Shown in pieces: positions 4,431 to 64,000 of a stretch of DNA of 64,000 bases. The notes beneath the pieces were generated by a model. It did no database searches, had not been told where the DNA came from, and was given only the letters and a program-made list of their open reading frames with translations. Source of the DNA: a virus (taxonomy: Duplodnaviria; Heunggongvirae; Uroviricota; Caudoviricetes); the IMG/VR virus record IMGVR_UViG_2861084961_000001; one strand, written 5' to 3'. The first letter of the stretch is position 1, and each line of letters starts with the position of its first letter. The position numbers and the translations under genes are program-made.

Positions 4431-7400
4431 ATGAAGGCTCTGATGGTTCGAACTGACTTCTCTCTTGGGGAGTCGGCTCTAAAAGCAGAAAACGCGGTGA
4501 AGATTGCCAGAGAAGCTGGCTACACCGCTGTAATTTCGGCAGATAGCATGAATATTGCGAGTGTTATTCCACTACAACGTGCCGCTGGTGACGACATGGC
4601 GGTTATTTGTGGTGTGAAACTAAACATTGTTGATGATCCCACATACGAGCACCGGGCTAAACTTGCTAAAGAGTCTATGGGATGTATGGAATCATTAGAG
4701 CGTGGGCGGAACTACTCCTTTACCGCTCTAATTAAAAATGAGCAGGGATATCGAGACATCTGCGAACTAATGACGGCGGCCAACACACGAGAACAGTTCT
4801 ACTTTGTACCGCGTCTCTCGCTCGAACAGTTGGTTTCTACATATGCCAAAGGCAACATCATCCTGCTAACTTCCGACATCGGTAGCGTGTTCCAACGCAA
4901 CGATTTTGCAAAAATCATAAGCTCACTGATTACAGCGGGTGGAAAAGACAACTTCTATAGTGTGGTTTATCCGCACCCTACCCATTCTACGACCAGATTA
5001 ACGTCCGGGCGATGAAAGTCGCCAGCGCACTGAAAATAGAGCCAGTAGCGTTCTATCCCGCTTATTACGAATCGATCGACGATGCAGACATTAAAGACAT
5101 TGCGCACATGGTTACGAACAACATCAAAATCGACCAGCCGCATCGTCTGCGTATCCCCACCAGCGAGATAACGCCGTCAATTGTCGCCGCCATCTCCTTG
5201 AGGCGCTGAAAGCCTTCTCCGTTCGCATGGATGTGCCGGTAACAGCTGCAATGGCCTCAACAACGCAGGATACCATTATCGATGCCTGCACATGGCGCTG
5301 GCATGAATTGCCACCAGCACTGCCAAAGATGGCAGACGACGAGCCTGCAACTCTGATGAAACTGGCCGTTGCTGGGCTGCGTAAACGTCTTACCACAAAA
5401 GAGTTTGGCTACACACCACCGGCTTCTGAGAACAGGGTTTATGTTGAGCGACTTAAGTACGAAATGGATACGCTGACTCGCCTGGGATTCTGTGGTTACT
5501 TCCTGATGGTGCGCGATCTGATGAATCATAGTCGTGAAACTGGCATTCCCGTTGGGCCTGGTCGTGGTTCCTCTGCTGGCTCTTTGGTGGCATGGTGCAT
5601 AGGCATAACCAACGTCGACCCAATCCGTCACGGTCTTCTGTTTGAACGTTTCATCAACCCTGAGCGTCTCGACTTGCCGGATGCGGATTTGGACTTCAGC
5701 CAGGCACGTCGCCATGAAGTGATCGAGTATCTGAATGAACGCTACGGCGAAGATTACGTTGCGGGTATTCCGAACTTCACATATCTGGGCGCAGCCTCTG
5801 CACTACGTGACACCGCTCGTATTTATGGTGTGGAGTCCGCAGATATGGCGGTATCAAAGAACTGAAGAACGTCGAGGATGATAGCCTTCCATTGGAAGAA
5901 CTGCGCGAACAACTGGCAAGTCTCGACAAATACGCAACAAAATATCCTGATGCATTCAATGCAGCCTGCAAGTTACAAAGCCTTATGCGTGGCTTTGGTA
6001 GACATGCGGCAGGGATGATCGTAGCAGGTGTTCCTCTGACAGAACGTACACCGGTTGAACGACGTGGTGACGCGCGTTGTATCGCATTTGACAAGCGTTA
6101 CTGCGAGGCTATGGGCCTAATTAAGCTGGACGTGCTTGGCCTGGCAACTCTCGATTTGCTCGATAGTGCAAAACGCTACATAAAAGAGAACACAGGTGAA
6201 GATATCAATCTTGATGCCATTTCTCTTGAAGATCGCAAGGTGCTGGATGGTTTTGCTGCTGGGTACACTCAAGGTGTTTTCCAGCTTGAATCAGGCCCAA
6301 TGCGCAAGCTGCTTAAAGATTTAGGTGGTGGAATTGAGCCAATGAGCTTTAAAACGGTCGTCGCTACGACTGCGCTCTTCCGGCCGGGGCCAATTCAGTC
6401 AGGCATGTTGGATGACTATGTTTCTGTAGCCAAAGGCTTTATGAAGCCGGAATCATTACACCCCGTTCTTGATGAACTTACCGCAGAAACAAATGGCGTG
6501 ATTCTCTATCAGGAACAGACGATGAACGCGACTCGATTGCTTGCTGGCTTCACAATGGCTGAAGCTGACGGTGTTCGTAAAGCGATCGGCAAAAAGGACA
6601 TGGAAAAATGAAGAGCATGGGCGAGAAGTTCATCGTTCAGGCTCAAGCTGGCTGGATAGACGTTGAGCTGGAAGATGGCACTACACAGCGCATTCACCGT
6701 GCGGAACATTTTAAATGCGAAGACGGAACTCTGAAAACTGTCGAAGAGGCACTTGAGTACGGCGCAAAACTACCTATAAACGCAGTACGCGTTACAGCGT
6801 CACATCCAGGGCTATCAGAGATGAAAGCGAAGGAGATCTGGACCGCATTCGAAAAAAATGGAGCCTACCAGTTCAACAAATCACACTCTGTTGCTTACTC
6901 CTTAATCAGTTATCAATCTATGTGGTTGAAAACTCATTATCCCGCAGAGTTTTCGCTGCTGCTCTCACTATTCTTGGCGAAGATAAACACCAGGGGCTGG
7001 TTAAAGATGCGCTGACCTATGGTATTCGCGTATTGCCACCAGACGTTAACGTGTCATCTAACCGAATCGAGATCCGCACGCTTGAAGATGGCAGCCAGGT
7101 GCTGTATGCGCCCTTCTCTGCTGTGAAGGGGTGTTCTGAGAATGGCTGCCAGGCCATCATGAGAGCGCGAGAAAGGGTTGGCGGCAAATTCGAGTCACTG
7201 GCGCAATTCGAAGAAGCTGTCGAGAAACGTGCCTGTAATAGTCGAGTGCGCGAATCACTGCAAAAAGTAGGTGCGTTTGCGTCCATAGAGCCAGGTAGTC
7301 TGCCAGCAACTGATCCAGAGCGTCTCCGCGACCAAGCAGAATTGATGGGAAACCTTGTCATAGATGCAGTTAAAGCCTCACGTCCGTTTGAGATGAACCC

Positions 7401-7506
7401 CAAACGTTCGGCTGAGATTAACGTGCTCATGACACGGATGGCGGCTGAAATGGGCTTAGGTGATGAACTAATCCGCCCAGCATTGGTATTAAGCCGAAAA
7501 TCATGA
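4431..7506 (+). CDS. dnaE: DNA polymerase III alpha (DnaE-like), fragmented into six ORF pieces by frameshifts
   Basis: PHP domain at N-terminus; motifs GIPVGPGRGSSAGSLVAWCIGIT, GHAAGMIV, KLDVLGL, GVFQLES, ALFRPGP, ILYQEQ, YQFNKSHSVAYSLISYQSMWLKTHYPAEF in successive ORFs 4431..5015, 5012..5209, 5227..5865, 5892..6611, 6608..7015, 6922..7506. Confidence 0.75.
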
Positions 7507-7943
7507 TCATTCTGGACAATGCGAACGGCAATGATGCTCGAACCGGTTACTTCATGGAGAACGGATACGACGATTTTAAGGCCAAGCTATTGACGGCTGG
7601 AGATTTACGCATGGGCGATCTCTATGTCACAGGCGTTTGCAAAAAGGTGAAAGACAAAGAAAAGGACTACACCAAAGACGAGATCGGCCAGTTCACCGAC
7701 TTTATGCGTGAAGAGATCAATCTGGTGCGTCCGACCTATGTGCTGACGTGTGGCAGCCGGGCAACGGCATTGTTTAACAACAAAAACAAGCCATCCGATT
7801 TGGTCGGCAGGAAGGAGTATCTTCCAGACCTTGACGTTACTGTCTTTTACGGGTTTAACCCCAACATTCTTTACTTCAGACCTGAAGAGGGAGAACGACT
7901 AGAAGCGATATTAGCCGACGTAGCAGAAACTATTAAGACGTGA
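7503..7943 (+). CDS. uracil-DNA glycosylase-fold (family 4-like) protein, possibly fused to DnaE in the true sequence
   Basis: Weak pattern match to UDG family 4 blocks (YVTGVCKK, LVRPTYVLTCGSRATALF, FYGFNPNILYFRP); no Fe-S cysteines. Confidence 0.35.
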   Translation: MIILDNANGNDARTGYFMENGYDDFKAKLLTAGDLRMGDLYVTGVCKKVKDKEKDYTKDEIGQFTDFMREEINLVRPTYVLTCGSRATALFNNKNKPSDLVGRKEYLPDLDVTVFYGFNPNILYFRPEEGERLEAILADVAETIKT

Positions 7944-12291: not shown

Positions 12292-13121
12292 ATGAAGAAA
12301 GGTTTACTTGCAGTTGCTCTGGCGGCTATTTGCACAATGGGTCTTACTGGCTGTGATCGCGTGGAGCCTGGATACGTTGGCATCAAAGTAAACAAATTAG
12401 GTGAAGACAAAGGGATTGGTGAAGTGGTTGGCGTTGGTCGCCAATGGACAGGTCTTAACACCGAACTTTACGTATTCCCGACCTTCAAACAAATGAAGAC
12501 CTACGACGAGCCGTTCACATTCCAGATGAGTGACGGTACTGCTATTGGTCATAAAATTGGCGTTGCGTATCTGGTTAATCGTGACAAGGTAACGACGGTG
12601 TTCCAGACCTATCGCAAAGGCGTAGACGATATCACCGAATCAGATCTGCGTCAGAAAATTGCCGACTCTCTAAACCGTTTGGCCAGCCGTATGACCACTG
12701 ACTCATTTATCGACGGTGGTAAGGCGCAATTGCTGGACAACGCACTGAAAGATATTCAGAAAGAGATGTCTCCGGTTGGTATTGAGGTACTGAGCCTATC
12801 ATGGGTTGGAAGCCTGATTACCCAAAAACCGTCATTGAATCTATCAACGCCAAAGTAACGGCTAACCAGCGTACTCTGCAACGTCAGCAGGAAGTCGAAC
12901 AACGTAAAGCTGAGGCGAATATGCTGCGTGAACAGGCTAATGGTGAAGCTGATGCTATTCGTGCTCGTGCGCAAGCAGAAGCAGACGCTATTCGTCTGCG
13001 CGGTGAAGCTCTGCGTCAAAACCCGAACGTTATGGAACTGGAAGCCATCAATAAATGGAATGGCCAGTTACCGCAGTACATGACTCAAGGGGCTAACACT
13101 CCTTTCATTACAGTGAAATAA
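12292..13121 (+). CDS. SPFH/band-7 domain lipoprotein (frameshift near 12810-12850)
   Basis: Lipoprotein signal MKKGLLAVALAAICTMGLTGC (lipobox LTGC); C-terminal Ala/Glu/Arg-rich coiled coil AEANMLREQANGEADAIRARAQAEADAIRLRGEA typical of SPFH proteins; ORFs 12292..12858 and 12801..13121. Confidence 0.5.
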
Positions 13122-14041: not shown

Positions 14042-14166
14042 AAAATTGTCATTTAGCTTTACGCATGAAGCATAGAGGTTAATAAGATGAAAAGAAAATT
14101 GAAGAACCAAAAACAACCCTTAATAAACATGGGGAAAAAATTCAAACACATCCAGCGTTCGGTCTT

Positions 14167-14826
14167 GTGAAAACAAGCCGTGTTAGCACAACTGGCATTC
14201 GCCTATTTGATTCAGAACTGGAACATAGAGACTATATTGAAATAGGCGTTTACGAGGCAGAGCTGTCCTTAGACAATGAACGAACCCGGCCACAAAGAAG
14301 TAGCAATAGACGGCCTTTAGTTGAAATTAGACTTAGCCAGGCACAATGGGCTGCTATGGTTAGCAGTTTTGGTGTGGGCGAAGGTGTGCCATGCACTATT
14401 TCATATAAAACCATTGGCGACTCAATTAGAGTTCATGATATTGCCGAGCAAAAAAGTATTCGGCAAAAATTCAACGATCAAATAAAGGCAGCTACGAATA
14501 GTGAGATTGATCGACTTAATCAGCAAGTTTCAGAGCTAGGTGAGCTTGTGAAAAAAGGAAGAGCTGGAAAACGTGACCTTGAAGAACTATATAGAAAACT
14601 TGCATCTGCTGTAGCTAACCTTCCTGAAAATCTGTGCTTTGCTACCGAATTAATGCAGGAGCAAATGGATGAAATTGTCTCATCTGGAAAGGCGGAGATT
14701 GAGGCGTATGTTGCAGGCACTGTTATGCGTAAAGGATTAGCAGCATTAGGTACAGAATCATGCATTAACGATGATCCTACAGTCTCTATCACCAAAATGG
14801 AAAGCGGTAAAGAATTACTGCCATAA
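14167..14826 (+). CDS. hypothetical protein; true start probably ATG 14087 with an A-run indel
   Basis: Frame is open from 14086; ATG 14087 sits one frame off next to an A-run. Confidence 0.4.
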   Translation: MKTSRVSTTGIRLFDSELEHRDYIEIGVYEAELSLDNERTRPQRSSNRRPLVEIRLSQAQWAAMVSSFGVGEGVPCTISYKTIGDSIRVHDIAEQKSIRQKFNDQIKAATNSEIDRLNQQVSELGELVKKGRAGKRDLEELYRKLASAVANLPENLCFATELMQEQMDEIVSSGKAEIEAYVAGTVMRKGLAALGTESCINDDPTVSITKMESGKELLP

Positions 14827-14893
14827 ATGTATCTGAGGTACTGACAATGCTTTTAATTCAACCTGGGTTCGGTTTAAAGATAAAAAAGGACAT

Positions 14894-15235
14894 ATGTTTG
14901 GTGAGAGAGATTCCAAACGAAAAATTCTGTCTATTCGATTGCCATTTATCACCATTCATTGGTTAAACAGAGAGTCAACCGATTATTGGTATAAATGTGC
15001 AAGAGCAGCATTTAACGACCCTGACTGGTTTATAGAAAACCACCACGCGGTTCGTCAGGCAAAAAGAAAGGCAAATACGACATATATGAAGGCATATCAG
15101 GATGCCTGGGAAGAACATCGTGGTCGATACCAAAAAAACATTGAAAAACTTGAATCTGAAAATATGGACCTAAGAAGAAAACTCGGTGAAGCACGGCGAG
15201 ATATTGAAGCATATAAACGTCTTGTATCGGAGTGA
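14894..15235 (+). CDS. hypothetical protein (113 aa)
   Basis: ORF track. Confidence 0.4.
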   Translation: MFGERDSKRKILSIRLPFITIHWLNRESTDYWYKCARAAFNDPDWFIENHHAVRQAKRKANTTYMKAYQDAWEEHRGRYQKNIEKLESENMDLRRKLGEARRDIEAYKRLVSE

Positions 15236-15397
15236 ATATGACTTTACATTGTTTTTCAAAGGGCATTGCTTTTCACTATACAGAAACAGAAATAATAATG
15301 GGGCATTCTACATATGTAGTAAATGTGGCAGAACAAAATATCTTCCAGATGTCAAATTTGAAGGTCCTTAAATGTTTGCATTAAATGGGCAATACAG

Positions 15398-15814
15398 ATG
15401 ATCGCAACAGACTTTTCTAAATTAAGTGATTTTGAAATTAACAGACGAGTATGTGAGGCTTTAGATATGGAGGAGTATTTCTTCATACCTGATGACGAAG
15501 CAGATTTCGATTCGGAGATCCCCACTGATGAAAGAGGTCCTGTTTGGCAAACGTCAAAAAGGGATATTAATGGCTTCCGTGCTTCAAACGGAAATTGCTT
15601 CAATCCTTGCAACAATCCGGCAGACGCAAAGCCTATTATCGTAGAGAATAGAATTGGCATCATTCCAGCGCCAGAAAATGGATTATGGAAGGCTGCGCAT
15701 AGAAAGGTTGGTAACGATAATACTCCATACCATATGACTCAAAATGTAAATCCACTCCGCGCCGCTATGATTGTCTTTCTGATGATGAAAGAAAGTGAGA
15801 GTTGTACCGATTAA
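15398..15814 (+). CDS. hypothetical protein (138 aa)
   Basis: ORF track. Confidence 0.4.
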   Translation: MIATDFSKLSDFEINRRVCEALDMEEYFFIPDDEADFDSEIPTDERGPVWQTSKRDINGFRASNGNCFNPCNNPADAKPIIVENRIGIIPAPENGLWKAAHRKVGNDNTPYHMTQNVNPLRAAMIVFLMMKESESCTD

Positions 15815-16112
15815 TGAATATATACGATTTTTTAAAAAACCTAACACATGTGTCAGAAAAGGGTATAGACCGTCAGTCATCGATTGCTGGTCGCTATCAG
15901 CAAATAATCTCAACAATGTATTCAAAATGCATTGGGAGTTTCTTTGTGAAGCGCGCGGCGTTCTCGACATGACAGTCAGAGAAGCAATTATCTGGATTCT
16001 TTGGTTTCCGGTAAGAACATTTATGACTCTGACGTACCCATTTACCTTCTGGATTTGGGGAACCGTCCTTTATTTCATATTAAAAGGAGAAGTAAAACAT
16101 GGCAGCAATTAA
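15795..16112 (+). CDS. hypothetical protein (105 aa)
   Basis: ORF track. Confidence 0.3.
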   Translation: MRVVPINEYIRFFKKPNTCVRKGYRPSVIDCWSLSANNLNNVFKMHWEFLCEARGVLDMTVREAIIWILWFPVRTFMTLTYPFTFWIWGTVLYFILKGEVKHGSN

Positions 16113-16524
16113 GAAACTCTACGATGCCGCAAACGCGGCTCTGAATGTTATTGATGATGAAGTATCAAAAGGCTTTCCTGAACCTGATTGGGCGCATCAG
16201 CTACGAAACGCTATCGCCGAAATGAAGCCACCAGCTCCGACCACCGACGAGACAGACTGGCAGCGATTTATCCGTATGTACGCTCAGGAAATAGGTCCAA
16301 CGCCAACGGCAGAGCAAGCAATGCTGCTGAAATACTTCAAAGAGGCGGGAGAGGATTTACCAATTGATGACTCAGCATATTGGTTCCACTGCGCATGGCG
16401 TAAATATGACGTGATATTCACACAAGGCATGGGGAGCAAAGATATGGTTGTGTGGCATCTACTCCATATAGACACAGCCGTTGACAGAGTTATTGAACAG
16501 TTTTTCCCTAAACAAGAAGATTGA
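16099..16524 (+). CDS. hypothetical protein (141 aa)
   Basis: ORF track. Confidence 0.4.
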   Translation: MAAIKKLYDAANAALNVIDDEVSKGFPEPDWAHQLRNAIAEMKPPAPTTDETDWQRFIRMYAQEIGPTPTAEQAMLLKYFKEAGEDLPIDDSAYWFHCAWRKYDVIFTQGMGSKDMVVWHLLHIDTAVDRVIEQFFPKQED

Positions 16525-16579
16525 TCGCCTATTCATAACTAACAAAATAAGTAAACACTAACCACAAAAGGAAAAACAC

Positions 16580-16855
16580 ATGAGAGTTTTAGTTCGAATC
16601 GTTACCAGCACTGTCTATGACGTGTTTCCGCTTTTTATGGTCAAAGCCGATGGCCTTAACGACGAAGAAACTGACGCACTGATCCAGCGTATTCTCGTTG
16701 AATATACAGGTCATGACGCTGATTCAGTGATGGTTGATGATGATGGTGTTTGTTGGCATAACGGCAACTGTTGGTACGTAGAAGAGACTCAACAAATCAG
16801 TGATGAAGATGCCGCACATCTTGAGCGTATTCTAAGCATCAGCACTTTTGAGTGA
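16580..16855 (+). CDS. hypothetical acidic protein (91 aa)
   Basis: ORF track; AAAGGAAAAACACATG start context. Confidence 0.4.
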   Translation: MRVLVRIVTSTVYDVFPLFMVKADGLNDEETDALIQRILVEYTGHDADSVMVDDDGVCWHNGNCWYVEETQQISDEDAAHLERILSISTFE

Positions 16856-17069
16856 GTTTACAGTAAAATTTATATAAGTTAGTATCTACCTATCATGAAG
16901 ATTTTATTGAATACTTGTTGCTCATCGTGTCAATAGCTTTTGTCATCGACTGCATTTTCACTGGTGTCATTCGTAAAGTCTTTTCCCCGGTGAACGACGT
17001 AGTCATAAACGCTTTGGCTATCGTGCTCGTATTTAATTCAGCATTTGATGTAATCAAAGAGGTGGCAGC

Positions 17070-17405
17070 ATGAAGGCCATCCCATTCGCGCTGTTGTTCC
17101 TTTCTTCGATCGTTGTGGCCGACACCACTGTTTATCAGTGTGAAATGTCTGTAGCCGACGTTAAGAATGGCGCTCTTACCGACGTCATAAAAGCACCATA
17201 TGGAGCGATGGTCGTAGACAGCGGCGACCAGTTCTATGTTGTGCGTGACGATCGAGTATTGTCATCCCCATATCTCACAAACCGTAATGGCAAATTAACC
17301 GGCGTCGGAGAAGACCACTTCGTATACAACAAATACAAGGGCTTCTATGGCGTTCACGCTTCTCAGCAAAGCTACCTTTTCGATGACTGCAAGGAGGTTG
17401 GATAA
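17070..17405 (+). CDS. secreted protein with N-terminal signal peptide (111 aa)
   Basis: MKAIPFALLFLSSIVVA signal-like N-terminus. Confidence 0.45.
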   Translation: MKAIPFALLFLSSIVVADTTVYQCEMSVADVKNGALTDVIKAPYGAMVVDSGDQFYVVRDDRVLSSPYLTNRNGKLTGVGEDHFVYNKYKGFYGVHASQQSYLFDDCKEVG

Positions 17406-17617
17406 TGGCATTAACACTAGCAGGTCTGGAAATCGAGAAAACAAGCGGATACTGGCGTGCTAAGGGTTTCAAGCAGCCTGGCGTTCTTGAGCGTCTGGAG
17501 CGTGAAGATGGGTATATCGTCCACCAGCGGCGTGAATGGCGCATGTACGATCCAGAAACAGGAAAACTGACTACAAAAGCCGGAACACTTTGGGGTCTGT
17601 TAAAGAAAATACACTAA
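17405..17617 (+). CDS. hypothetical protein (70 aa)
   Basis: ORF track; followed by hairpin GACTGCGG-CTCGTT-CCGCAGTC at 17627-17648. Confidence 0.35.
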   Translation: MALTLAGLEIEKTSGYWRAKGFKQPGVLERLEREDGYIVHQRREWRMYDPETGKLTTKAGTLWGLLKKIH

Positions 17618-17663
17618 ATGCAAACTGACTGCGGCTCGTTCCGCAGTCATATTTCATAGTCGT

Positions 17664-48222: not shown

Positions 48223-48227
48223 TTTTA

Positions 48228-51519: not shown

Positions 51520-51540
51520 TTAAGCAACCATTCTTCACAA

Positions 51541-51566
51541 TGCCCGGCAATACGCTGGGCATTTTC
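51541..51566 (+). terminator. rho-independent terminator after metG
   Basis: TGCCCGGC-AATAC-GCTGGGCA plus TTTT. Confidence 0.6.
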
Positions 51567-51602
51567 ATATAGACACAATCCCTTCTGACTTTAACAAACC
51601 CT

Positions 51603-51668
51603 AAAACAATTTGTTTTCTGCCTTTTGTTGATTGAGATAATAAGCCACATAAGAAAACAAATTGTTTC
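51603..51668. promoter_or_regulatory. two motif B palindromes (AAAACAA-T-TTGTTTT and GAAAACAAATTGTTTC)
   Basis: Immediately right of the metG terminator, upstream of 51681 gene. Confidence 0.45.
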
Positions 51669-51680
51669 GGAGTGGTTGAA

Positions 51681-51980
51681 ATGTTGAACATTACCCAAGC
51701 CTACCAGGTGGCATTGATCAGTTCATCTCATACATCAGAGGAAGATGCTCGCCGATTCATGATCGCAAGCAATGAGCTGGATTGGGTTTCGCAAATTGAC
51801 GGCGGTTGTATTGTCCACGCCGGGTTACAGGATGATGTCTGGAAAGACGACTTGCGTCGATATGGTATATCCGAAGGCGCGATTGCTAACATTCAGAAAG
51901 TACTTGATGTAGGCTTTGACTCTGTACATTTTGATTGTGGTGCGCCGGTCGTTGAAGGGCTTGAGTGCTGGAACTGGTAA
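51681..51980 (+). CDS. hypothetical protein (99 aa)
   Basis: ATG 51681 within track ORF 51672..51980; motif-B sites upstream. Confidence 0.4.
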   Translation: MLNITQAYQVALISSSHTSEEDARRFMIASNELDWVSQIDGGCIVHAGLQDDVWKDDLRRYGISEGAIANIQKVLDVGFDSVHFDCGAPVVEGLECWNW

Positions 51981-52025
51981 CAGATATTAAAGCATTGGTA
52001 GTTTGTTTTTAGGATTATCAAAGAA

Positions 52026-52759
52026 ATGAAAAAGTTGAAAAGTTTAGAAATCCCTGGGACTGGTTATAAATTCTTTATGGACAACGCGGAGTGTGCGCCT
52101 AACGCGTTGGAAAAAATACAAAGTCTTATCAACAGCCTTACTGAAGAAGCGAAAGAACTGAAGAGCGAGGCGACAAAGGACAATACAGCTAAAATCCAAT
52201 GCTTAAATCTCGTCTCTTATTGTTTATATCAAGTATCCAAAACACTGATTAAAGGCAATATCTATTACGACGATGAAGACACCTCGACACCTGAAGAAAA
52301 GATAGCGATGAAGAACTCTATGAAGATATCTCTACTAGTGCGGGTCACGCTGCCTTCGATGCTATGGGTAAATCGTCAGGCATCAGATCATTTGTTGAAC
52401 AGAACAATTCGACAATAATGATTGAGTACTGTGAACAAACAAGCTCCAAGGCCATACATGTTCTTCACGATGTTGCTGCAGGGGTTCGTTGTGAGGCTGA
52501 AGCGGTAAGAAAAGATGTATTTGGTGCAGACAGTAATACCGTGAAAGCGTTTATCAACAGTGCTCTGCTAAATTCTTACTCAAACCTTATAGTCAATGCG
52601 GCACTATGCGCAAATTCAGGTGAAGAACACATTGTCATAACCGAAACCAAACATGAGCATCAACAGTCACCAACCATAGAAGAGGTAACTGCATTGGCTA
52701 TCAAACAGGCGAGTGAAATTAGTGATGAAATTCTCTCTCTGCTAAACAAAACTAGGTAA
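52026..52759 (+). CDS. hypothetical protein (ORFs 52026..52418 and 52364..52759, probably one gene)
   Basis: ORF track; overlapping frames. Confidence 0.35.
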
Positions 52760-52869
52760 AACATTGATAATGGCGGTCACAATTTGATTCTTTTCTATAA
52801 GAATCCGTTGATCGCCACTACTCCCCTTCCATACCTGCAATCACATCCTTAAATATCAATAGGTTGTAG

Positions 52870-53660
52870 TTGTTTATACAAACAAGAAAACAACTGAATA
52901 ACAGATCAACGAAACGTCAACGCTTTCACCCGATTTGGTCTAAAAAATTGACGTTTTCACACATCACTTCTTATACCCGCAATCCTACGCAGCAGACAGC
53001 GCCACAGCGTCCAATTTTCACCACAGACGACCCAACACACCACCAACAAAAACACACGCTCAAAATCGCTCTCGTTGCGTTACATAACCATATAAACAAC
53101 TTATTTTCAGGCATAACAAAACAACTAAATAACACATACGCAATTCCCAAAAACAACCAACCTCTTTATTGCAGGCTACCGAAAAGACCCACCTCTTCTT
53201 CCCAGGCTACCGGACAACCAACCTAACTTTCACAGGCAATCCGAAAACATTCATGCGCGCGATACCCACGACACGCCATTCCCCAAACAGCGAAGAAACA
53301 CCTGAACCACCGAAACCCCAACGAAGCCTGTAACCGCAAGGATTCTCTCAATCCCAAAAGACACGAAACATAACAATCACGGGAAACGCCATTACCCAAT
53401 ACACGAATAACTACAAAAGCCTTTCACACACTCCAGACAAACAACTCAAACACAATAACGAAAGGAATCGCCCACCTGCCATTACTCCATACACGGAGAA
53501 GAACAAGCACCAAAACGACGAGAACATCCCACAGAAGAACCACCGCAAAACTAACGAAACCATTTACACCGACAGAGAGAACAACACACCCAATTCACCA
53601 ACAGAATTAGTCGCCGTATAGAACGTTCTGGAAGGAGTGAGCATTAACGTCCATAGAGAG
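52870..53660. repeat. strand-asymmetric CA-rich non-coding region containing CAGGCTACCG-type direct repeats
   Basis: Plus strand almost free of G or T runs for about 800 bp; only ORF there is low-complexity; repeats near 53170, 53200, 53235. Confidence 0.45.
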
Positions 53661-53779
53661 GTTGAGACAGATAAAACACGAAGAAAACACAACATGTATA
53701 GCGAAGAAGCCAGGTATGTATAAGTGGGGAGGGAAGGAGGGGTGTCGCCTCCTTTTTCGTATTTATTCAACTCCTGATT

Positions 53780-53960
53780 TTATCCCCCGTAACACCCCTA
53801 CGGTCAGCCTTCGGTCCATACAGGGAAAGGCTGCATCCCGCTACAGAAACGGCTGGGTTGCCTTTGGGGAACGGCTGGAGGTTTTCAGGGAAACGGTCGA
53901 GTTGCCTTTGTGGATTTCGGGAAAAGGCTCGATGCCGGTTCAGGAACGGCGGCGTACCGG
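53780..53960. repeat. array of about six GGGAAACGGCT-like direct repeats spaced 22-30 bp
   Basis: CAGGGAAAGGCTG, CAGAAACGGCTGG, GGGAACGGCTGG, GGGAAACGGTCG, GGGAAAAGGCTCG, CAGGAACGGCGG. Confidence 0.45.
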
Positions 53961-54286
53961 TATAGCGAGAGGGAGAGTTGCGGCTACCCACCTGTAATGT
54001 GCGGGAAGAAGAGAGGCGCTCACGTGCAGGCGGACTTGCTTACCGCTGGATTCCCTCTGAATGCCCAGCTACAGCGTAATTGTGCCAGACAGCCAACGGG
54101 TCACGATCGATTTCAGTAGGTTTTCGGGGAGAGGATTATTCTGTCCACCAGCCACCTTCGGCCACTAAATCAGAATAATGTAAAAAGTGTACTCGGTACT
54201 GAACCTGAAAACTCACTGCCAAAACCACATTCACCGGAATAAAATCCTTTTTCGCCTGTGCGTTATTGCGATAATAACACCAACAA

Positions 54287-54301
54287 GAAAACATGTTGTT
54301 T
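54287..54301. promoter_or_regulatory. motif B palindrome (GAAAACATGTTGTTT)
   Basis: Upstream of 54314 gene. Confidence 0.4.
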
Positions 54302-54313
54302 AAGGATTGCTTT

Positions 54314-54643
54314 ATGTTTGCACATATCGACATCAACCAAATTAAGAAATTGACTCAAAAAGAGTTTGACCAGTTCTATGAGCTGGAAGGTTGGTCTTCC
54401 ACTCTGATTAATTCAAGATGGGTGCTGGAGCTGATGACTCGTGATGACGCACCTGCTTTGATGATTAGCGACCTGGGTGAAGATGCTGACTTTATGGATA
54501 TGAGCGAATTTTGTGTGGACACATACAACCGCAGCCAGAAGTACTACTTCACATGCGATAGCGAGAATGACGTGATTTCTAAGGTCTATCTTCACCTCGT
54601 CCAGCATTGGGACGTTCAGGAGTTTCTTGAGGTATTCGCGTAA
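54314..54643 (+). CDS. hypothetical protein (109 aa)
   Basis: ATG 54314 inside track ORF 54293..54643; motif-B site upstream. Confidence 0.4.
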   Translation: MFAHIDINQIKKLTQKEFDQFYELEGWSSTLINSRWVLELMTRDDAPALMISDLGEDADFMDMSEFCVDTYNRSQKYYFTCDSENDVISKVYLHLVQHWDVQEFLEVFA

Positions 54644-54769
54644 ACCAATCAAAGCCAGCATTGCTGGCTTAATTTCTCTATAGCCGCAGGGAGGAACCTG
54701 CATATCGCTCATGCACCTGATCAATATGCTTTGTAGCCGTTTTCTTACTGGTATTATTTACGCCATTGA

Positions 54770-54783
54770 GAAAACAAGTTGTT
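54770..54783. promoter_or_regulatory. motif B palindrome (AAAACAA-G-TTGTTT)
   Basis: Upstream of 54796 gene. Confidence 0.45.
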
Positions 54784-54795
54784 TACGGAGTTGTG

Positions 54796-55107
54796 ATGAA
54801 AAAATCATTGGTTCTTGGTCTGGACAAAGACCAGAAGAGAAAAGAGAAGCCTGCACTGGTTGCTCAATTAACTTTGCTGGACATCGTTGCCAATGGAACC
54901 TCTATTCGTCTGTTCCGTGAAACAGCGGTGTCTTTCGATAAAAACACCTTTACTCGTTATGTAATGAATGTTCGTCGCCAGCGTGGAAAAGGCTGGGTGG
55001 CATTTCAAAGAATGTGGCCGGAACATCAGCTCGAACTGGCTTTGATGGAAGTTAACCGCGTGGCCCAGCAAGAAATTCAGAGAGCATCAGTGATGGCAAT
55101 AGCCTGA
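54796..55107 (+). CDS. hypothetical basic protein (103 aa)
   Basis: ATG 54796 inside track ORF 54766..55107; motif-B site upstream. Confidence 0.4.
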   Translation: MKKSLVLGLDKDQKRKEKPALVAQLTLLDIVANGTSIRLFRETAVSFDKNTFTRYVMNVRRQRGKGWVAFQRMWPEHQLELALMEVNRVAQQEIQRASVMAIA

Positions 55108-55140
55108 TAATGTGCAAGTGGTAATTAGTCGACAGTACGA

Positions 55141-55171
55141 CAGCCCCGCCATCCTTACGGGGCTTTTTTGT
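55141..55171 (+). terminator. rho-independent terminator CAGCCCCG-loop-GGGGCT plus T6
   Basis: Stem plus TTTTTT. Confidence 0.6.
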
Positions 55172-55233
55172 ATTGTAAGTACATACCTACGACTATAAAA
55201 TAGAAAAATAACCAATACACTACGGAGAGTGAA

Positions 55234-55629
55234 ATGACCGTTAAACGCGAAAAACTGACAGTTGATGTTTACTATGCCTCTGAAACTGCCGAAGGTAAGA
55301 ATGTGGCAAAAATCACCGTTGTTACGTACAACACCGAAACTGGTGCCGAAGTCCAGGCCAGTACGATCGTGCGTAAAGGTGATGCCTCCGGCGGCGAGTA
55401 CGCGACTCAATACCAGTCCATTCTCGATGCAACTGACCCACTGCTGCTGAAAATCGAGAACTACTTCCGCCAGGTTGATGAAGAGGTGTTTGAAACCATG
55501 ATGAGTATGGTTAATTCCGTATTCACCTCCAGCCTGAACACTAGCACCACCTGGATTGGCCAGTACGGTCTGCGCATTACCTCCGGCATTCCTGCTGACA
55601 CCTTAATCCCTGAAAGCGTATTCGCTTAA
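55234..55629 (+). CDS. hypothetical protein (131 aa)
   Basis: ORF track; RBS GGAGAG. Confidence 0.45.
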   Translation: MTVKREKLTVDVYYASETAEGKNVAKITVVTYNTETGAEVQASTIVRKGDASGGEYATQYQSILDATDPLLLKIENYFRQVDEEVFETMMSMVNSVFTSSLNTSTTWIGQYGLRITSGIPADTLIPESVFA

Positions 55630-55638
55630 TCCTCTTTA

Positions 55639-55664
55639 AATGGCGCGTAAACCGCGCCATTTTC
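55639..55664 (+). terminator. rho-independent terminator AATGGCGCG-TAAAC-CGCGCCATT plus TTC
   Basis: Perfect 9-bp stem. Confidence 0.55.
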
Positions 55665-55673
55665 TTATGCCCG

Positions 55674-55690
55674 ATAACAATTTGTTTTCT
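55674..55690. promoter_or_regulatory. motif B palindrome (AACAA-T-TTGTT)
   Basis: Upstream of 55747 gene. Confidence 0.4.
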
Positions 55691-55746
55691 GCCTTATCTG
55701 ATTTGTGAAAATGATTTCACTGAAGCAACTTAATAAGGAAACCATC

Positions 55747-56121
55747 ATGGGACTTGATATCTATATCGAGACGCAGCCTAAAAACGATCTGAATAACGAG
55801 GCATCCAGAAAGCGGGTTGCTTACTTCCGTAAGTTCAATGCGCTCGTTGGGTGGATGGAGCGCAACGTAGGTGAAGTCGAAAATTGTGAGCTTTTAGAAT
55901 TAACGATGAATGACATTTGTTTTCTGAAGGCTCATTTGATGCACATAAATGAAAGTAATTGCGAAGAGTACTTGCCTACCCGGGAAGGTTTTTTCTTCGG
56001 CAGTCAGGAGTACGATGAAGGTTACTGGCATGACGTGGATAAGCTGAAAAAACTTGTGGAAGACCTGATCATGAACCACGACTTTCACAATAACAGACTG
56101 ACCTTCTGCGCCTGGTGGTAA
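55747..56121 (+). CDS. hypothetical protein (124 aa)
   Basis: ATG 55747 inside track ORF 55705..56121. Confidence 0.4.
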   Translation: MGLDIYIETQPKNDLNNEASRKRVAYFRKFNALVGWMERNVGEVENCELLELTMNDICFLKAHLMHINESNCEEYLPTREGFFFGSQEYDEGYWHDVDKLKKLVEDLIMNHDFHNNRLTFCAWW

Positions 56122-56124
56122 ATA

Positions 56125-56268
56125 TGGGCGATTTCAAGAAACGCCTGAAGGAAAGAGCCGAGATGGTCAGAAAGCGAAACGCCTATTCTGTCATCAGATA
56201 CGCAAGGCAGTTTAGTCGCAACAACAAATCAGTTGAGGAAAAGATCCTTAGCGTAATCGGGCGATAAT
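56125..56268 (+). CDS. small basic ORF (47 aa)
   Basis: Read from sequence; followed by hairpin AAGACCACC-AGCAT-TGGTGGTCTT at 56273-56296. Confidence 0.25.
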
Positions 56269-56436
56269 TATTAAGACCACCAGCATTGGTGGTCTTAAAT
56301 GACCATCCTGTTTCCCGCAGGCTAAAAACACCAACCTCTTACCTCCAGGCAACCGACAAACCCACCTGTTCCCGTCAGGCTACCGCAACTTTCCACTTTG
56401 ACGCCTTATTCGTACAACGATAATTAACGCCAACAA

Positions 56437-56451
56437 GAAAACAATTTGTTA
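56437..56451. promoter_or_regulatory. motif B palindrome (GAAAACAATTTGTTA)
   Basis: Upstream of 56472 gene. Confidence 0.4.
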
Positions 56452-56471
56452 TTTACGATAAGGAATTAATC

Positions 56472-56954
56472 ATGAATTTTATCGCTACTGTAAACGCACC
56501 CGCACATGGCAATATCGCTGTAACGTTCTCTGACATTGAAAAACGAGTACTTGGTGCCTGGCGTCACAATGAGACGGTAGAACTGTCAGCACAAGAAAAA
56601 TGCATTATTGCACGCGACATCATTGGCAATCGTCGTTACTCGCGGGTATTTGAGAAAGCGTATGTGGTAAATTCTGGATTCGGAACGTTCGTCTTTCCGG
56701 TGCGCTCCGGGCGATTCTGCCAGTCCAAGCTGATTGAGTTCGCTACGCAGATTTCTGTCTGGATTAAAACTCAATCGTCGTTCAAATTTTCCGACGATGA
56801 AGCAGTATCGCAGGGGATGCGGATCGCCAACAATGCAATTAAATGCAAAAACATTACGTATACCGCTGGCGTTGATACATGGAAACTGTTTTGCGCTAAC
56901 TTTATGCTGAATGTATACGCAAGCAACCGCATCCACATCCTTGATGGCGTGTAA
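56472..56954 (+). CDS. hypothetical protein (160 aa)
   Basis: ORF track; motif-B site upstream; followed by hairpin AGGGCC-AGAAAC-GGCCCT. Confidence 0.45.
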   Translation: MNFIATVNAPAHGNIAVTFSDIEKRVLGAWRHNETVELSAQEKCIIARDIIGNRRYSRVFEKAYVVNSGFGTFVFPVRSGRFCQSKLIEFATQISVWIKTQSSFKFSDDEAVSQGMRIANNAIKCKNITYTAGVDTWKLFCANFMLNVYASNRIHILDGV

Positions 56955-57570
56955 CTGAGAAGAGGGCCAGAAACGGCCCTTTCTCTATAGCCACCAGCTG
57001 CCGCAGGGAAATTTTCAGAAACGGCGAGGAACGTATTCATGAGCCGACGGGAAACGGCCAGGATTTTTTTCGGGAAACGGCTGTATTCGCCTTTATGTAG
57101 AAAAACATCGGGAAGCTGGTGGAATCCAACCAGCGGTTGTCGGACAGGTGAGCGGGGAAAATTATAATGACTTTCGTCGCCTGAGACATCCAGATTTCTT
57201 TCGTAGCATAATCACATACGTGATTAAGTGGTGTGATTATGTGAAAAATCACGCGCACATAATACGCGATCGGACACAGAACAAAACAAAATGCCGATCC
57301 GCACCGACAAATACACGCTGATCACATAGCAAGACTAAAAGCCAATGATTAACCATACTCTATAGCGCAATATAACGCGCTTTAAGCGCGTTAATGTGTT
57401 AAGTAATGGGTATGTACTGGCGAGGATATAAAAGCGCGACTATGGCGTTATTTTGGCGCTTATTTTTATGTTGTTGGAGTGAGTTAAAGACAATAAATAA
57501 CGCGCCAATGATGGCGCGTTATGGTGGGAGTATTGGAAACGAAAAAAGCGCCCATAGTGGGCGCTCGATT

Positions 57571-57798
57571 TTATTTATGTAAACTGATTTCAAATCCCAT
57601 TTCTACGAACGCTTTTAACATTAAAAATATATCAGCGTCGTTCACGTCTGCTTTTTTTCGCTCCTGGTCGCTCAATAAGTCAATTTTGCGCGTCGTTTCA
57701 TCTATAAGCTCAACAGATCCAGCGTAACCAGCGATCCCAGCAATATCATTAACACAATATTCATTGTGGACGTTAACGCCAGCGATAAGAACAAACAT
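57571..57798 (-). CDS. hypothetical protein (75 aa)
   Basis: ORF track; followed on minus strand by hairpin AGCGCCCA-TAG-TGGGCGCT and T-run. Confidence 0.35.
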   Translation of the reverse strand: MFVLIAGVNVHNEYCVNDIAGIAGYAGSVELIDETTRKIDLLSDQERKKADVNDADIFLMLKAFVEMGFEISLHK

Positions 57799-57819
57799 GA
57801 TTAAGCTCCTTAAAAAAAA

Positions 57820-58023
57820 TTAAATAGAATTTTGAAGTTTTCCGATTAATGCGCTTAAGCGTAAGTATTCACGTTTGCGCTTGCAATCTCGCTTGCTGTT
57901 AAGCAAATCAGAAAACGTAAAATTTAATTGGTCGCGTTGCGCGATCAAATCATCGATTAATTCCAGTTTGTAAGCGCGATACTTTGCGCGATATTCCGCG
58001 CGGATCTTGTCATAGCTGACCAT
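57820..58023 (-). CDS. hypothetical protein (67 aa)
   Basis: ORF track; strong AAGGAG RBS. Confidence 0.35.
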   Translation of the reverse strand: MVSYDKIRAEYRAKYRAYKLELIDDLIAQRDQLNFTFSDLLNSKRDCKRKREYLRLSALIGKLQNSI

Positions 58024-58070: not shown

Positions 58071-58720
58071 TTACGCTTTGAAAGCATCAGCTAGATAATT
58101 GTAGAAATCATTCTTGATAAAGCGATATTGCTGCGTACCAGCTTTGGCGCTTCCCATTCCTTTGACTTTCTCAACAAGTCCAAGACGTTCGCAAAGATTG
58201 ATCAACTGGTTGGCTTGAGTATAGCCAGCGTCCAATTTAATTTCGCACGCTTTTTTAGCTTCATTCATCAAATCGAAAACAGCGCCATTAGTGAACGTGT
58301 CGATCTCGTCGTTAATCATATCGATTAAAGCGAATACACGAGATCCAGACATATCAGCGACGGAATAAACACATTTACCAGCTTTAATGGATTTAACCAG
58401 ATAAACCAGTTTTCCAGTGAATAACTATTAGTCATAGCATCACGGAAAAATACTTCTGGCGCTTGTTTGCTTGCTTTAATCGCATAGTAGAAAACAGAGC
58501 ATAATTTTTCGTCTTCTACAGCGTTTACAACGTTGTTGATGAAGTAAGCAAGTTTAGTGGTCGCAGCTTGCATATTTGCTTTGTCTGCTTTAGTGTGCGT
58601 ACCATTTTTATAATGTTCGTTATATGTTTGAGTTGCCAGATCTGCTTTTTCGCGCAGCTCGTCGGATACAATAGATGCAGCTTCAATGATGGACTTTTTA
58701 GAAATGATAATGTTAGCCAT
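58071..58720 (-). CDS. hypothetical protein (ORFs 58325..58720 and 58071..58352, probably one gene)
   Basis: ORF track; overlapping frames. Confidence 0.35.
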
Positions 58721-59310: not shown

Positions 59311-59353
59311 AACTCAAAAAGGCAAAATTCGCTCAACCCAATCGAACAAATAA

Positions 59354-59836
59354 CTATTTTTCTACCGTTCTCGACACGTAGTGTAACCTGACAAGCATCT
59401 GCGCCTGCTGACACCCCTCAATTTCACGGCCATCCGCCATGTACACTCTTATAGATTTGTTTGCTTTATAGGCTTGGTTGCAAATAGCAAAAAAATCGCG
59501 GCGTGATGGCCGATTATCGACATAATCAGGATGAACTGTTAATCGACCTTTGAAATCGTGAGCGATACTGTCAACCACACCTGATTCAATTGTACTAATG
59601 CGTTCAAGTGGGAGCCTTATACGATTTTCTTTGTCAAAAGGGGCTGGGCAAAGGTCAACTTTGTTACGAGATGGCATGAGGCCATAAACGTACATGCAAA
59701 ACGCCTGGCCATCTTCCAGAGTGGCCCTTACAGGAATTTGTTCTCTGCGCCAGAACATCAGTAGTTTTTCAACGTTAGTGTAATCTCGCGGCCAGAGTTC
59801 AGCTTGGATACCGTAGGTAATATCTTTGGTTGTCAT
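59354..59836 (-). CDS. hypothetical protein (160 aa)
   Basis: Internal ATG 59836 directly after the upstream stop inside track ORF 59354..59914. Confidence 0.4.
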   Translation of the reverse strand: MTTKDITYGIQAELWPRDYTNVEKLLMFWRREQIPVRATLEDGQAFCMYVYGLMPSRNKVDLCPAPFDKENRIRLPLERISTIESGVVDSIAHDFKGRLTVHPDYVDNRPSRRDFFAICNQAYKANKSIRVYMADGREIEGCQQAQMLVRLHYVSRTVEK

Positions 59837-62254: not shown

Positions 62255-62935
62255 ATGGATGTAAAAATCACGATTTTGCAGGTTGATGTTGCCAACCTTC
62301 GCCCGAATACCTGGAACACCAATTCGGTTGGTGCGCAGAATTTTGAAAAACTGAAAGGTTCTATCGAAAAATTGGGCTTTTTTAAGCCAATTTTGGCTCG
62401 TGAACTTGAAGATGGATTTTTTGAAATCCTCGGCGGCGAACATCGCTGGCGTGCCGCTATTGAGCAAGGAATTTCAATGGTTCCAGTGCTTTCTGTGGGC
62501 AAAATTAGCGATGTCGTAGCTAAACAGATGTCACTGGTGGACAACGAGCGATACGGTGAAGACGACCAAATCGCATTGCAACGCTTCATTGAAGAAATTC
62601 AGTCAGAACTTGACTATCAACTGTCTGAAATCGCCCCGTATGACGACGAAATCTCGATGGTTTTAGCAAAAGAGGCGGCAATCGACCTTGAAGCACTGGA
62701 GGCGTTGTCTCGTGGTAGTGATGAGCCTGTCGATACCGACAAACGAGAGAAAACCGAACGTGTGGGGGCGGAACATCAGACCATGCGCTTCAAAGTAACT
62801 TTCGATGCGTCAGATCGTGTTGCAGAAACCATAAAAAACATCATCAAAGAGCAGGCTATTAACACCGGTAATGAAATGGAGAACGCTGGTGAGGCTCTGG
62901 TGTGGCTGGTCGACTACTACAAGGAGCGTATGTAA
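62255..62935 (+). CDS. ParB/Srx-fold nuclease-domain protein
   Basis: LRPNTWNTN...GFFKPILARELEDGFFEILGGEHRWRAAIEQGISMVPV; ATG 62255 within track ORF 62237..62935. Confidence 0.55.
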   Translation: MDVKITILQVDVANLRPNTWNTNSVGAQNFEKLKGSIEKLGFFKPILARELEDGFFEILGGEHRWRAAIEQGISMVPVLSVGKISDVVAKQMSLVDNERYGEDDQIALQRFIEEIQSELDYQLSEIAPYDDEISMVLAKEAAIDLEALEALSRGSDEPVDTDKREKTERVGAEHQTMRFKVTFDASDRVAETIKNIIKEQAINTGNEMENAGEALVWLVDYYKERM

Positions 62936-63602
62936 TGACCAAAAAGTTTGAAATCGTATATCGCGACCCGGCAGATCTTATTCCCTATGAGATGAATGCC
63001 AAAAAGCATGATGAACAGCAGATCCGAGATCTGGCCGCAGCCATTAAAAGCGCGGATTTGACCAGCCAATTACGGTCGATAAGAACGACGTAATTATTAC
63101 TGGCCACGGCCGCCGTGAGGCTGCAATTTTTGCTGGACTTGAGCGCGTACCGGTTATTGTTCGCGATGATCTCAGTGATGACGAGGTTCGTGCGAAGCGC
63201 CTTGAAGATAACCGACTTGCCAGCATTGATTACGATGCAATTAAGCTACAGAAAGAACTTGAGTCGCTTGTTCTGGACGATATCGAGGTTTTCGGCTTTG
63301 AAGAGCGGGAGTTGAATGTTCTCGTTGGCAGCATGACAGAAGAAATGGACACCGACTCGCTAGTTATCGATCTGGGCGAAGAAACTAAACGACAGAAGGA
63401 TGAACACACCGAGATCAGTCGTGAAGTTGCAGCGGAAGAAGTACGTGTTGTCGACGTATTGGGCTTTAAAACGCTCCCTGCTGGCTCTGCCATTGTTGTT
63501 GGTGATTTGCTTGCCCACATGGAAGAAATGACGGGAGAAAGCGGGGTAGACGCATTTGTGGCATATGCGGAGAAGATCTCTTCCGGGGAGATGGCTGCAT
63601 GA
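62935..63602 (+). CDS. second ParB-like domain protein (frameshift near 63050)
   Basis: IVYRDPADLIPYEMNAKKHDEQQIRDLAAAIKSA then, in the other frame, FDQPITVDKNDVIITGHGRREAAIFAGLERVPVIV. Confidence 0.5.
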
Positions 63603-64000
63603 GCAAATACATCATCAACGTATCGTTTCAGACACGCGTAAATAAAACCACGCGCACGTTGGAAATCGCTGAGTCGTTCGGGCTTGGCCTGGACGAAAAA
63701 GAGTGGACGCTTTACGACAATCTGGAGCTGGAAGTGAAGCAGGCGATGTGGTGTACATCACCGGCCAATCCGGTTCAGGTAAATCCGTTGTGTTGCGCGA
63801 GTTGCAACGCCAGATGAAGGATGAAGGGCTTTCTGTAGCTTCTATTGATGACTTTACCTTCGATAATGAGGTTAACGTCATTGACCAACTGGGCAAAACT
63901 ACCAGTGATGCGCTTGGGTTGTTATCTATGGCAGGTCTGAACGATGCATATCTGTTTGTTCGCAAGCCTTCTGAAATGTCAGACGGTCAGAAATATCGTC
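63599..64000 (+). CDS. P-loop ATPase (ABC-like), partial at window end, frameshift near 63745
   Basis: Walker A GQSGSGKS and SDGQKYR in the frame following ORF 63599..63817. Confidence 0.4.

Follow-up and report, generated by a model that had tools for sequence, protein, structure and literature searches.

The SSU5 group of phage-plasmids of Enterobacteriaceae (PMC7969092) includes Salmonella phage SSU5, pHCM2, E. coli p09EL50, pEC881_2 and phage Cyrano. The 64,000-nucleotide stretch of DNA analysed here (the window) has the same gene order and content, with CobT-like, dnaE, gp32-like, RecA, RepB, SbcCD and NrdAB genes and further matches in ThyA, DHFR, Dam, RNase H, apbC–metG and ParB. Apparent frameshifts are the sole difference from the group, and gene content is that of two sister elements, GCA_012600915.1 and GCA_023797875.1. 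A second class of known systems concerns assemblies rather than replicons: Nanopore assemblies are known to suffer systematically from frame-shifting homopolymer indels, with deletions in excess after Racon polishing (PMC8011154, PMC12007338), and repair tools that compare such assemblies with homologues exist, namely Homopolish and Kastor (PMC12007338).

Identity of the element and its closest relatives

Synteny and identity with SSU5 and p09EL50 place the window among the SSU5-like E. coli phage-plasmids, as do its Rep3-type initiator, its pair of ParB genes, DnaE and NrdAB of its own and the apbC–metG module. Phage structural genes, which in relatives adjoin this region, are beyond the limits of the window. 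Many public E. coli plasmids are 98–99.9% identical to the window, with lower values for Cyrano (96%) and SSU5 (79%); pEC881_2 and p09EL50 (98% each) and pEA26_1 (99%) are all annotated with intact genes. No match of more than 99% identity over the window length was present in PLSDB, INPHARED or the RefSeq complete E. coli genomes, and the near-identical sisters were located by exact-protein look-ups. Over 22.3 kb, sister L010 (GCA_023797875.1) has 5 mismatches and 23 gaps relative to the window, and over 21.7 kb sister L029 (GCA_012600915.1) has 1 mismatch and 8 gaps, a difference of 1–5 substitutions per 22 kb but 8–23 one-base gaps, and every gene is full length in both. When the nearest sister is taken for each 2-kb bin of positions 1–50 kb, the window shows 11 mismatches, 42 one-bp deletions and 0 insertions. 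A preliminary description of this DNA had proposed comparison with orthologues as a check on its frame-split genes, and near-identical sisters with intact genes are what that comparison returned.

Frame-split genes along the window

Mapping of the 77 annotated pEC881_2 genes onto the window, together with tblastn using sister proteins, identifies 25 frameshifted genes, more than the preliminary description had listed. Six shifts fall in dnaE, three each in sbcC, sbcD and a hypothetical gene at 24475–25041, two in a Flag1_repress-type regulator and one in each of the others. The affected span had been given as 4431–63800; the splits themselves are confirmed, although the first lies further upstream, at 1960 in the CobT-related gene (814–2921, plus strand; A4 to A3), a −1 shift common to 0 of 19 relatives. 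It is followed by a −1 shift at 3258 (A6 to A5) in an AAA_5 ATPase gene (3017–4249, plus strand) and by an intergenic deletion at 4407 (A7 to A6).

The gene for the Pol III alpha subunit, dnaE (4431–7943, plus strand), contains −1 shifts at 4981, 5155, 5856, 6604, 6950 and 7476, so that an earlier count of about five was right as to multiplicity and one short in number. DnaE is consequently read as seven fragments in frames 3, 2, 1, 3, 2, 1 and 3, each with 97–100% identity to the intact sister protein by tblastn. The junction singled out previously near 6605 is exact: positions 6604–6608 are A5 in the window and A6 in 19 of 19 relatives, and the translation reads KKDMEK and a stop, then MKSMGEK. 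A 44-mer spanning this junction with the A5 allele had no match in viral, metagenome or genome DNA collections, where the A6 allele is present.

Downstream of dnaE, single −1 shifts on the plus strand affect an SPFH/Band_7 gene (12292–13121; 12810, A3 to A2) and two hypothetical genes (14087–14826; 14095, A5 to A4; and 14847–15235; 14882, A7 to A6). The interval 15251–17884 holds private 1-bp deletions, mostly non-coding, at 15251, 15828, 16902, 17745 and 17884; that at 15828 (T7 to T6) falls at about codon 5 of a hypothetical 99-aa ORF starting at 15815. The RepB/Rep3 replication initiator (18195–19408, minus strand) is shifted by −1 at 19115 in a C-run, with an intergenic deletion beside it at 19526. 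On the plus strand, the SbcD-like metallophosphoesterase gene (20508–21590) has three −1 shifts (21163, 21327 and 21381), and the SbcC-like AAA ATPase gene (21820–23733) has the three reported previously (22114, 22720 and 23387). Two hypothetical plus-strand genes follow, with −1 shifts at 23965 (G6 to G5; gene 23723–24465) and at 24481, 24507 and 24729 (gene 24475–25041); the RuvC-like label used in the preliminary description is unconfirmed, since its two candidates, the hypothetical genes beside sbcC, gave no Pfam match. A private 1-bp deletion at 27446–27448 lies between nrdA and nrdB, both of which are intact.

Further genes on the plus strand each carry one −1 shift: the thymidylate synthase gene thyA (29796–30898; 29877, A4 to A3), a folA-like, dfrA51-like DHFR gene (31310–31785; 31432, G4 to G3), an AAA_28 kinase-like gene (31785–32428; 32165–32168) and a DnaQ-like 3′–5′ exonuclease gene of the RNase_T type (32919–33475; 33301, G3 to G2). 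The same holds for a hypothetical 269-aa gene (33636–34444; 34020, A6 to A5), for TerB-like (37791, A7 to A6) and DUF3927 (38229, T4 to T3) genes, both within 37743–38324, and for hypothetical genes of 195 aa (45789–46372; 45993, G4 to G3) and 244 aa (52026–52756; 52297, A5 to A4). Private single-base changes between 53823 and 58023 that lie in intergenic DNA or on the margins of genes comprise three deletions (53823, 57101 and 58023) and the sole private insertion, at 57064 (T6 to T7). The minus strand then contributes a hypothetical 216-aa gene (58071–58720; −1 at 58410, T5 to T4) and the Flag1_repress-type regulator (59317–59836; −1 at 59348 and 59414), and the plus strand a ParB/Srx gene (62935–63602; −1 at 63046, A5 to A4) and an ABC-domain gene that extends past the window end (63599–64000; −1 at 63742, G3 to G2). 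The splits previously listed in sbcD, repA (RepB), thyA, folA, dnaQ-like, CobT-like, TerB, nucleotide kinase (AAA_28) and ParB-like (ParB/Srx) genes are thus all borne out.

Number, privacy and spectrum of the single-base events

Comparison with up to 29 relatives yields about 47 private single-base deletions and 1 insertion in the window; a first tally gave 42 deletions and 1 insertion, common to 0 of 5–29 relatives, and 5 more were added later. Nearly all private indels are therefore −1 (deletion:insertion 42:1) and most lie in runs, which answers the earlier question of whether each shift is a single-base change at a homopolymer. Consistent with this, a 4-way alignment assigns 43 one-bp deletions and 4 insertions specifically to the window. 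Lineage-specific changes in that alignment amount to 252 substitutions and 47 one-bp indels for the window versus 1446 and 26 for the three references together, an excess of indels over substitutions with an odds ratio of 10.4 (P = 1.5e-20). As a negative control, eight other assemblies carry 0–2 private indels each per 21 kb (4 in about 219 kb), whereas the window has about 47 in 63 kb.

The rate of contraction rises monotonically with ancestral run length, from 0.003% for single bases through 0.05%, 0.44%, 1.9%, 4.3% and 15.7% for runs of 2, 3, 4, 5 and 6 to 26.7% for runs of 7 or more, in agreement with the earlier statement that junctions fall at homopolymers; a few deletions lie outside runs (19526, 54677 and 58023). 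Coding and non-coding DNA are hit at equal rates (11 non-coding deletions observed, 10.5 expected), and essential genes are not spared, RepB, dnaE and ParB being among those frameshifted. Deletions of A outnumber those of T on this strand (23 versus 8), an asymmetry explained by its greater number of A runs. Among the 7 private substitutions within 1–50 kb, too few for a signature, none lies at the methylation motifs CCWGG or GATC. One private substitution, at 42906, creates an in-frame nonsense codon and could be a real mutation.

Events show mild over-dispersion along the window (P = 0.02 by chi-square simulation), with an excess in dnaE and sbcCD and a nearly clean stretch of about 14 kb (38300–52200) that has 1 deletion versus 8.0 expected (post hoc P = 0.003). 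This stretch includes apbC (mrp; 48228–49328) and metG (49486–51519), which the preliminary description had called host-type genes and contrasted with the split ones. Neither carries a shift, as stated, although both are plasmid-borne in all relatives, and the contrast lends no support of its own: 0 shifts versus 1.2–1.4 expected (P = 0.24–0.31) is not significant alone, and the main conclusion is unaffected.

Origin of the frame splits

Taken together, the indels are private, biased to deletion and more frequent in longer runs; they fall on coding and non-coding DNA alike with no footprint of selection, exceed those of normal assemblies and far outnumber substitutions (36:7 within 1–50 kb, the opposite of what any biological process yields), a pattern that upholds the earlier preference for systematic indel errors over decay. 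We are highly confident that errors of sequencing or assembly in the deposited consensus account for the frame splits, and that the true molecule would be an ordinary, intact SSU5-like E. coli phage-plasmid, the support being comparative rather than direct. Sequencing or assembly would have dropped about 47 single bases, mostly by under-calling homopolymer length, at an error level of about 0.7 per kb (about Q32). Each base lost within a gene would shift the frame by −1, so that gene callers see fragments.

Consensus assemblies with homopolymer errors, whether from Nanopore or PacBio CLR or from Ion Torrent or 454, share with the window length-dependent single-base indels and frameshifted false pseudogenes whose counterparts in close relatives are intact, and Racon-polished ones show a similar deletion excess (PMC8011154). 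The best fit is an insufficiently polished long-read consensus, such as low-coverage PacBio CLR or Nanopore data polished in the manner of Racon, because the deletion bias is near-exclusive, errors occur in 2–4-base runs and the substitution:deletion ratio is near 0.2; the sequence alone cannot decide between long-read and flow-based (Ion Torrent or 454) platforms. The window differs from such assemblies in that its errors are spatially uneven, with the 14-kb clean stretch, and about a quarter of its deletions fall in runs no longer than 3 bases. Over-dispersion counts against a uniform error process, whereas uneven coverage or partial polishing would predict it.

Genuine decay, in which this copy is a degraded, non-functional remnant with real frameshifts, is very unlikely. 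Many genes are hit, several more than once, the nonsense codon at 42906 is private, and defective phage-plasmids occur in nature (PMC12977533). However, alignments to the near-identical sisters are single collinear HSPs that show neither large deletions nor IS insertions, the 36 private deletions in 50 kb stand beside no more than 7 private substitutions, and DnaE, SbcC and RepB fragments retain 96–100% identity to intact orthologues, with no relaxed constraint. All frameshifts are singletons among up to 29 relatives and hence not inherited, and a 42:1 ratio of deletions to insertions is not a known natural spectrum. Moreover, a plasmid with a broken RepB initiator could not replicate, yet the full plasmid layout is present.

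It is extremely unlikely that the deletions are real and stem from a −1 slippage burst confined to this phage-plasmid, in which, for example, the element might have been replicated by its own DnaE after loss of the DnaQ-like exonuclease and the freshly shredded copy kept only by host-driven replication or integration. Also extremely unlikely is a real burst of −1 slippage at runs, whether in a mismatch repair (MMR)-deficient host or after the element had lost proofreading by its DnaQ-like protein. Such mutators do produce ±1 indels concentrated in mononucleotide runs at a rate rising with run length (PMC8510543), and the element's own DnaE and 3′–5′ exonuclease genes are both hit. MMR-defective E. 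coli lines, however, accumulated 5,324 indels and 30,061 substitutions (1:5.6; PMC8510543), from which the 36:7 ratio of the window (0.19 substitutions per indel) departs about 30-fold (binomial P = 2.6e-23), and +1 events are nearly absent here. A rate of 0.7 indels per kb would also mean more than 3,000 frameshifts in the host genome, and the equal coding and non-coding rates would imply that selection was wholly absent, even for RepB.

Programmed recoding, by which ribosomal frameshifting or transcriptional slippage would restore full-length proteins, has a negligible chance of being correct: the junctions do coincide with A/T runs, classical slippery sequences, but in all relatives the run is one base longer and the same proteins are read in one frame throughout, true recoding sites should show conservation whereas these are private, dnaE would need six efficient events for its six consecutive −1 shifts, and deletions are equally common in non-coding DNA.

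Consequences for the deposited record

Attribution of the splits to consensus errors matters as quality control only and implies no new biology. For about 25 genes, including the replication initiator, the polymerase and a dfrA51-type trimethoprim-resistance DHFR, any annotation, pseudogene count, dN/dS value or gene-content comparison based on the record would be in error. The remainder of the assembly probably carries a similar error density, and the record should therefore be polished or replaced by a clean sister (GCA_012600915.1 or GCA_023797875.1). A protein look-up gave no entry for the truncated products of dnaE and the regulator gene, and nine of ten truncated products have no match among about 15 billion proteins. 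The tenth, the 120-aa N-terminal remnant of RepB, is identical to GenBank entry ASJ37143.1, found on one 109,613-bp E. coli plasmid that is presumably the source record.

Identity and layout of the element

When 24–25 kb pieces were compared by Megablast with collections of phage, plasmid and E. coli sequences, the window proved to be an SSU5-type phage-plasmid, a group described previously (PMC7969092). Among phages, its identity is 96% with Escherichia phage Cyrano and 79% with Salmonella phage SSU5; among plasmids it is 97.7–98% over 97% of the query with pEC881_2 (NZ_CP019027.1), p09EL50 (NC_018651.1) and other E. coli plasmids, and ∼99% with E. albertii pEA26_1. Its gene order is that of the plasmids: CobT-like, AAA_5, dnaE, gp32-like, 5′–3′ exonuclease, RecA, SPFH, RepB, SbcD, SbcC, NrdA, NrdB, ThyA, DHFR (dfrA51 in RefSeq), AAA_28, 3′–5′ exonuclease, Dam, RNase H, TerB, DUF4942, HD, Ead/Ea22, S24 peptidase, apbC, metG, DEAD helicase and two ParB genes. 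The underlying element is of a well-known kind, and the splitting of its genes is a sequence-quality artefact.

The stretch 51000–58000 is a mosaic, more variable part of the element; no near-identical sister was found for it, and it shows 23–46 mismatches per 2 kb to its best relative and contains 25 private substitutions (alleles found in the window alone).

Frame-split genes

Mapping of every annotated pEC881_2 CDS within the window revealed 20 genes with frameshifting gaps, every gap being −1. Five more emerged from tblastn with proteins of closer sisters: the Flag1_repress regulator, which is shifted twice, three hypothetical genes (195, 244 and 99 aa) and an ABC-domain gene at the window end. 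The splitting of conserved genes reported in the preliminary description is thus real and involves 25 genes, the affected span beginning at 1960 instead of 4431. DnaE, credited with about five shifts, is indeed split but carries six −1 shifts, giving seven fragments in frames 3, 2, 1, 3, 2, 1 and 3 that are 97–100% identical to the intact 1,172-aa sister protein (tblastn). Three shifts apiece were found in SbcC, as first described, in SbcD and in the hypothetical gene 24475–25041, and the replication initiator RepB (404 codons) is interrupted at codon 98. In the genes with at least three shifts (4431–7943, 20508–21590, 21820–23733 and 24475–25041) the counts of 6, 3, 3 and 3 are multiples of three and the gene ends regain the original frame, which is probably a coincidence because stops fall between the shifts.

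The folA-like gene (31310–31785) is 99.6% identical at the DNA level to the RefSeq-annotated trimethoprim-resistant DHFR DfrA51 (PMC12217456), and resistance-gene screens would overlook it owing to its false frameshift.

Indels derived in the window

A four-way MAFFT alignment (57.9 kb) of the window and three complete plasmids was used to count lineage-specific events. The window lineage accounts for 252 substitutions and 47 one-bp indels (43 deletions, 4 insertions), against 162 and 1 for pEA26_1, 399 and 6 for pEC881_2, and 885 and 19 for p09EL50 (indels versus substitutions, window against pooled references: odds ratio 10.4, Fisher P = 1.5e-20). Exact-protein look-ups with intact proteins of the window (NrdA, RecA, DUF4942, the helicase, the gp32-like protein, MetG and a 154-aa protein) yielded 55 more loci in draft genomes and metagenomes, all with full-length neighbouring genes. 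Two of them are near-identical sisters: GCA_023797875.1 (L010) differs from window 15132–37424 by 23 gaps and 5 mismatches, and GCA_012600915.1 (L029) from 29179–50856 by 8 gaps and 1 mismatch. Over the first 50 kb, comparison with the nearest sister per 2-kb bin gives 42 one-bp deletions, no insertion and 11 mismatches.

Over all relatives, the private events comprise 42 one-bp deletions, a single one-bp insertion (57064, T6 to T7) and one in-frame 3-bp deletion, the imbalance of deletions over insertions being highly significant (P = 1e-11). At these sites the window allele occurs in 0 of 5–29 covering sequences; five further deletions (17745, 45993, 53823, 57101 and 58023) are private or nearly so. 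The polarity of a few indels within 51000–58000 is less certain because that region is variable and no near-identical sister was found for it. Of the 32 private substitutions, only 7 lie in 1–50 kb; the others fall in 51–58 kb, a part lacking a close sister in the sample. As a negative control, the identical procedure applied to eight other assemblies returned 0–2 private indels each, 4 in ∼219 kb.

Indel signature

The probability of contraction rises monotonically with ancestral run length, from 0.003% for single bases through 0.05% (2), 0.44% (3), 1.9% (4), 4.3% (5) and 15.7% (6) to 26.7% for runs of 7 or more, which bears out the earlier placement of junctions at homopolymers. The junction first cited, KKDMEK* followed by MKSMGEK, is exact and spans an A5 run at 6604–6608. 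No copy of its 44-mer occurs in the viral, metagenome or genome contig collections. The A6 counterpart was searched in the viral collection alone and does occur there. Deletions are not depleted in genes, since the 11 non-coding ones match the 10.5 expected from run content. An excess of A over T deletions on the plus strand merely reflects more A runs there. Error density is 0.69 per kb (∼Q31.6).

Along the window the deletions are modestly over-dispersed (simulation P = 0.02): run content predicts 8.0 for the 14 kb at 38.3–52.2 kb, where 1 was observed (post hoc P = 0.003), while an excess marks the regions of dnaE and sbcCD. Uneven coverage or partial polishing would explain this nearly clean stretch and the enriched regions, and the over-dispersion does not favour a biological origin. 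The preliminary description had set apart mrp (apbC) and metG as unshifted host-type genes. They do contain no deletion, but 1.2–1.4 were expected and P = 0.24–0.31 makes the contrast weightless by itself; moreover, gene order matching that of related plasmids makes them part of the element, which carries them in all relatives, rather than of the host chromosome.

Consensus errors versus biological lesions

The frame splits are almost certainly consensus errors; the sequencing platform we only infer. Frame-shifting homopolymer indels that inflate pseudogene counts are a documented systematic error of Nanopore assemblies (PMC8011154; PMC12007338), and Racon-type polishing leaves a deletion excess (PMC8011154). 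Genuine decay of the element predicts shared lesions of mixed type and relaxed substitution. Here, by contrast, no frameshift recurs in any relative, the sisters align collinearly with the window with neither an IS nor a large deletion intervening, private substitutions are few, and the fragments match intact orthologues at up to 100% identity. In addition, a real lesion at codon 98 of RepB would abolish plasmid replication. The preference for indel error over decay is therefore upheld. A mutator origin would yield more substitutions than indels, as in mutation-accumulation lines of mismatch-repair-defective E. coli (30,061 substitutions, 5,324 indels; PMC8510543), whereas the private events in 1–50 kb are 36 deletions and 7 substitutions (binomial P = 2.6e-23). 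The orthologues, each read in a single frame with one extra base per run, exclude programmed recoding.

Neither the DnaE N-terminal fragment nor the regulator fragment is on record, and 9 of 10 shortened products are absent among ∼15 billion proteins. The tenth, a 120-aa RepB remnant (19046–19408, minus strand), is identical to GenBank ASJ37143.1, 'hypothetical protein ACJ76_25870', which occurs once, on an E. coli plasmid contig of 109,613 bp. That plasmid is presumably the record behind the window; the PLSDB and RefSeq collections that were searched do not contain it. The window sequence itself needs polishing and should not serve for inferring pseudogenes or gene content.

Other variants and features of relatives

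Codon 49 of a gene for 180 aa (42761–43303; PF26211, Phage_phiTE_072 family) reads TAG in frame (42905–42907) owing to a private substitution at 42906, whereas all 6 relatives that cover the gene have it intact. Either a substitution error or a genuine nonsense mutation could account for this. In gene 57571–57798 (minus strand), private substitutions at 57712, 57715 and 57718 adjoin the private in-frame 3-bp deletion, and this small divergent patch (57712–57719) has the look of genuine variation or of a local fault in the consensus rather than of a homopolymer error.

Some relatives (L019, 5124–5858; L045, 12303–14642; NZ_CP027369.1) carry selfish insertions within or near replication genes, of which the window has none. 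These are a dnaE-splitting HNH endonuclease ORF, a RecA intein with LAGLIDADG and, close to dnaE, a homing endonuclease of LAGLIDADG type. In some assemblies the phage-plasmid segment lies on chromosome-sized or very large contigs (L051, VCZV01000001.1, 4.89 Mb; L053, CP043541.1, 5.57 Mb; L057–L063, 0.2–0.57 Mb), either because the element is integrated or because the contigs are misjoined. In GCA_006235245.1 (L061, 18960–20465) the plasmid-borne metG is called in three pieces of 320, 118 and 230 aa, so that this public assembly of the element seems to suffer from frameshifts as well.
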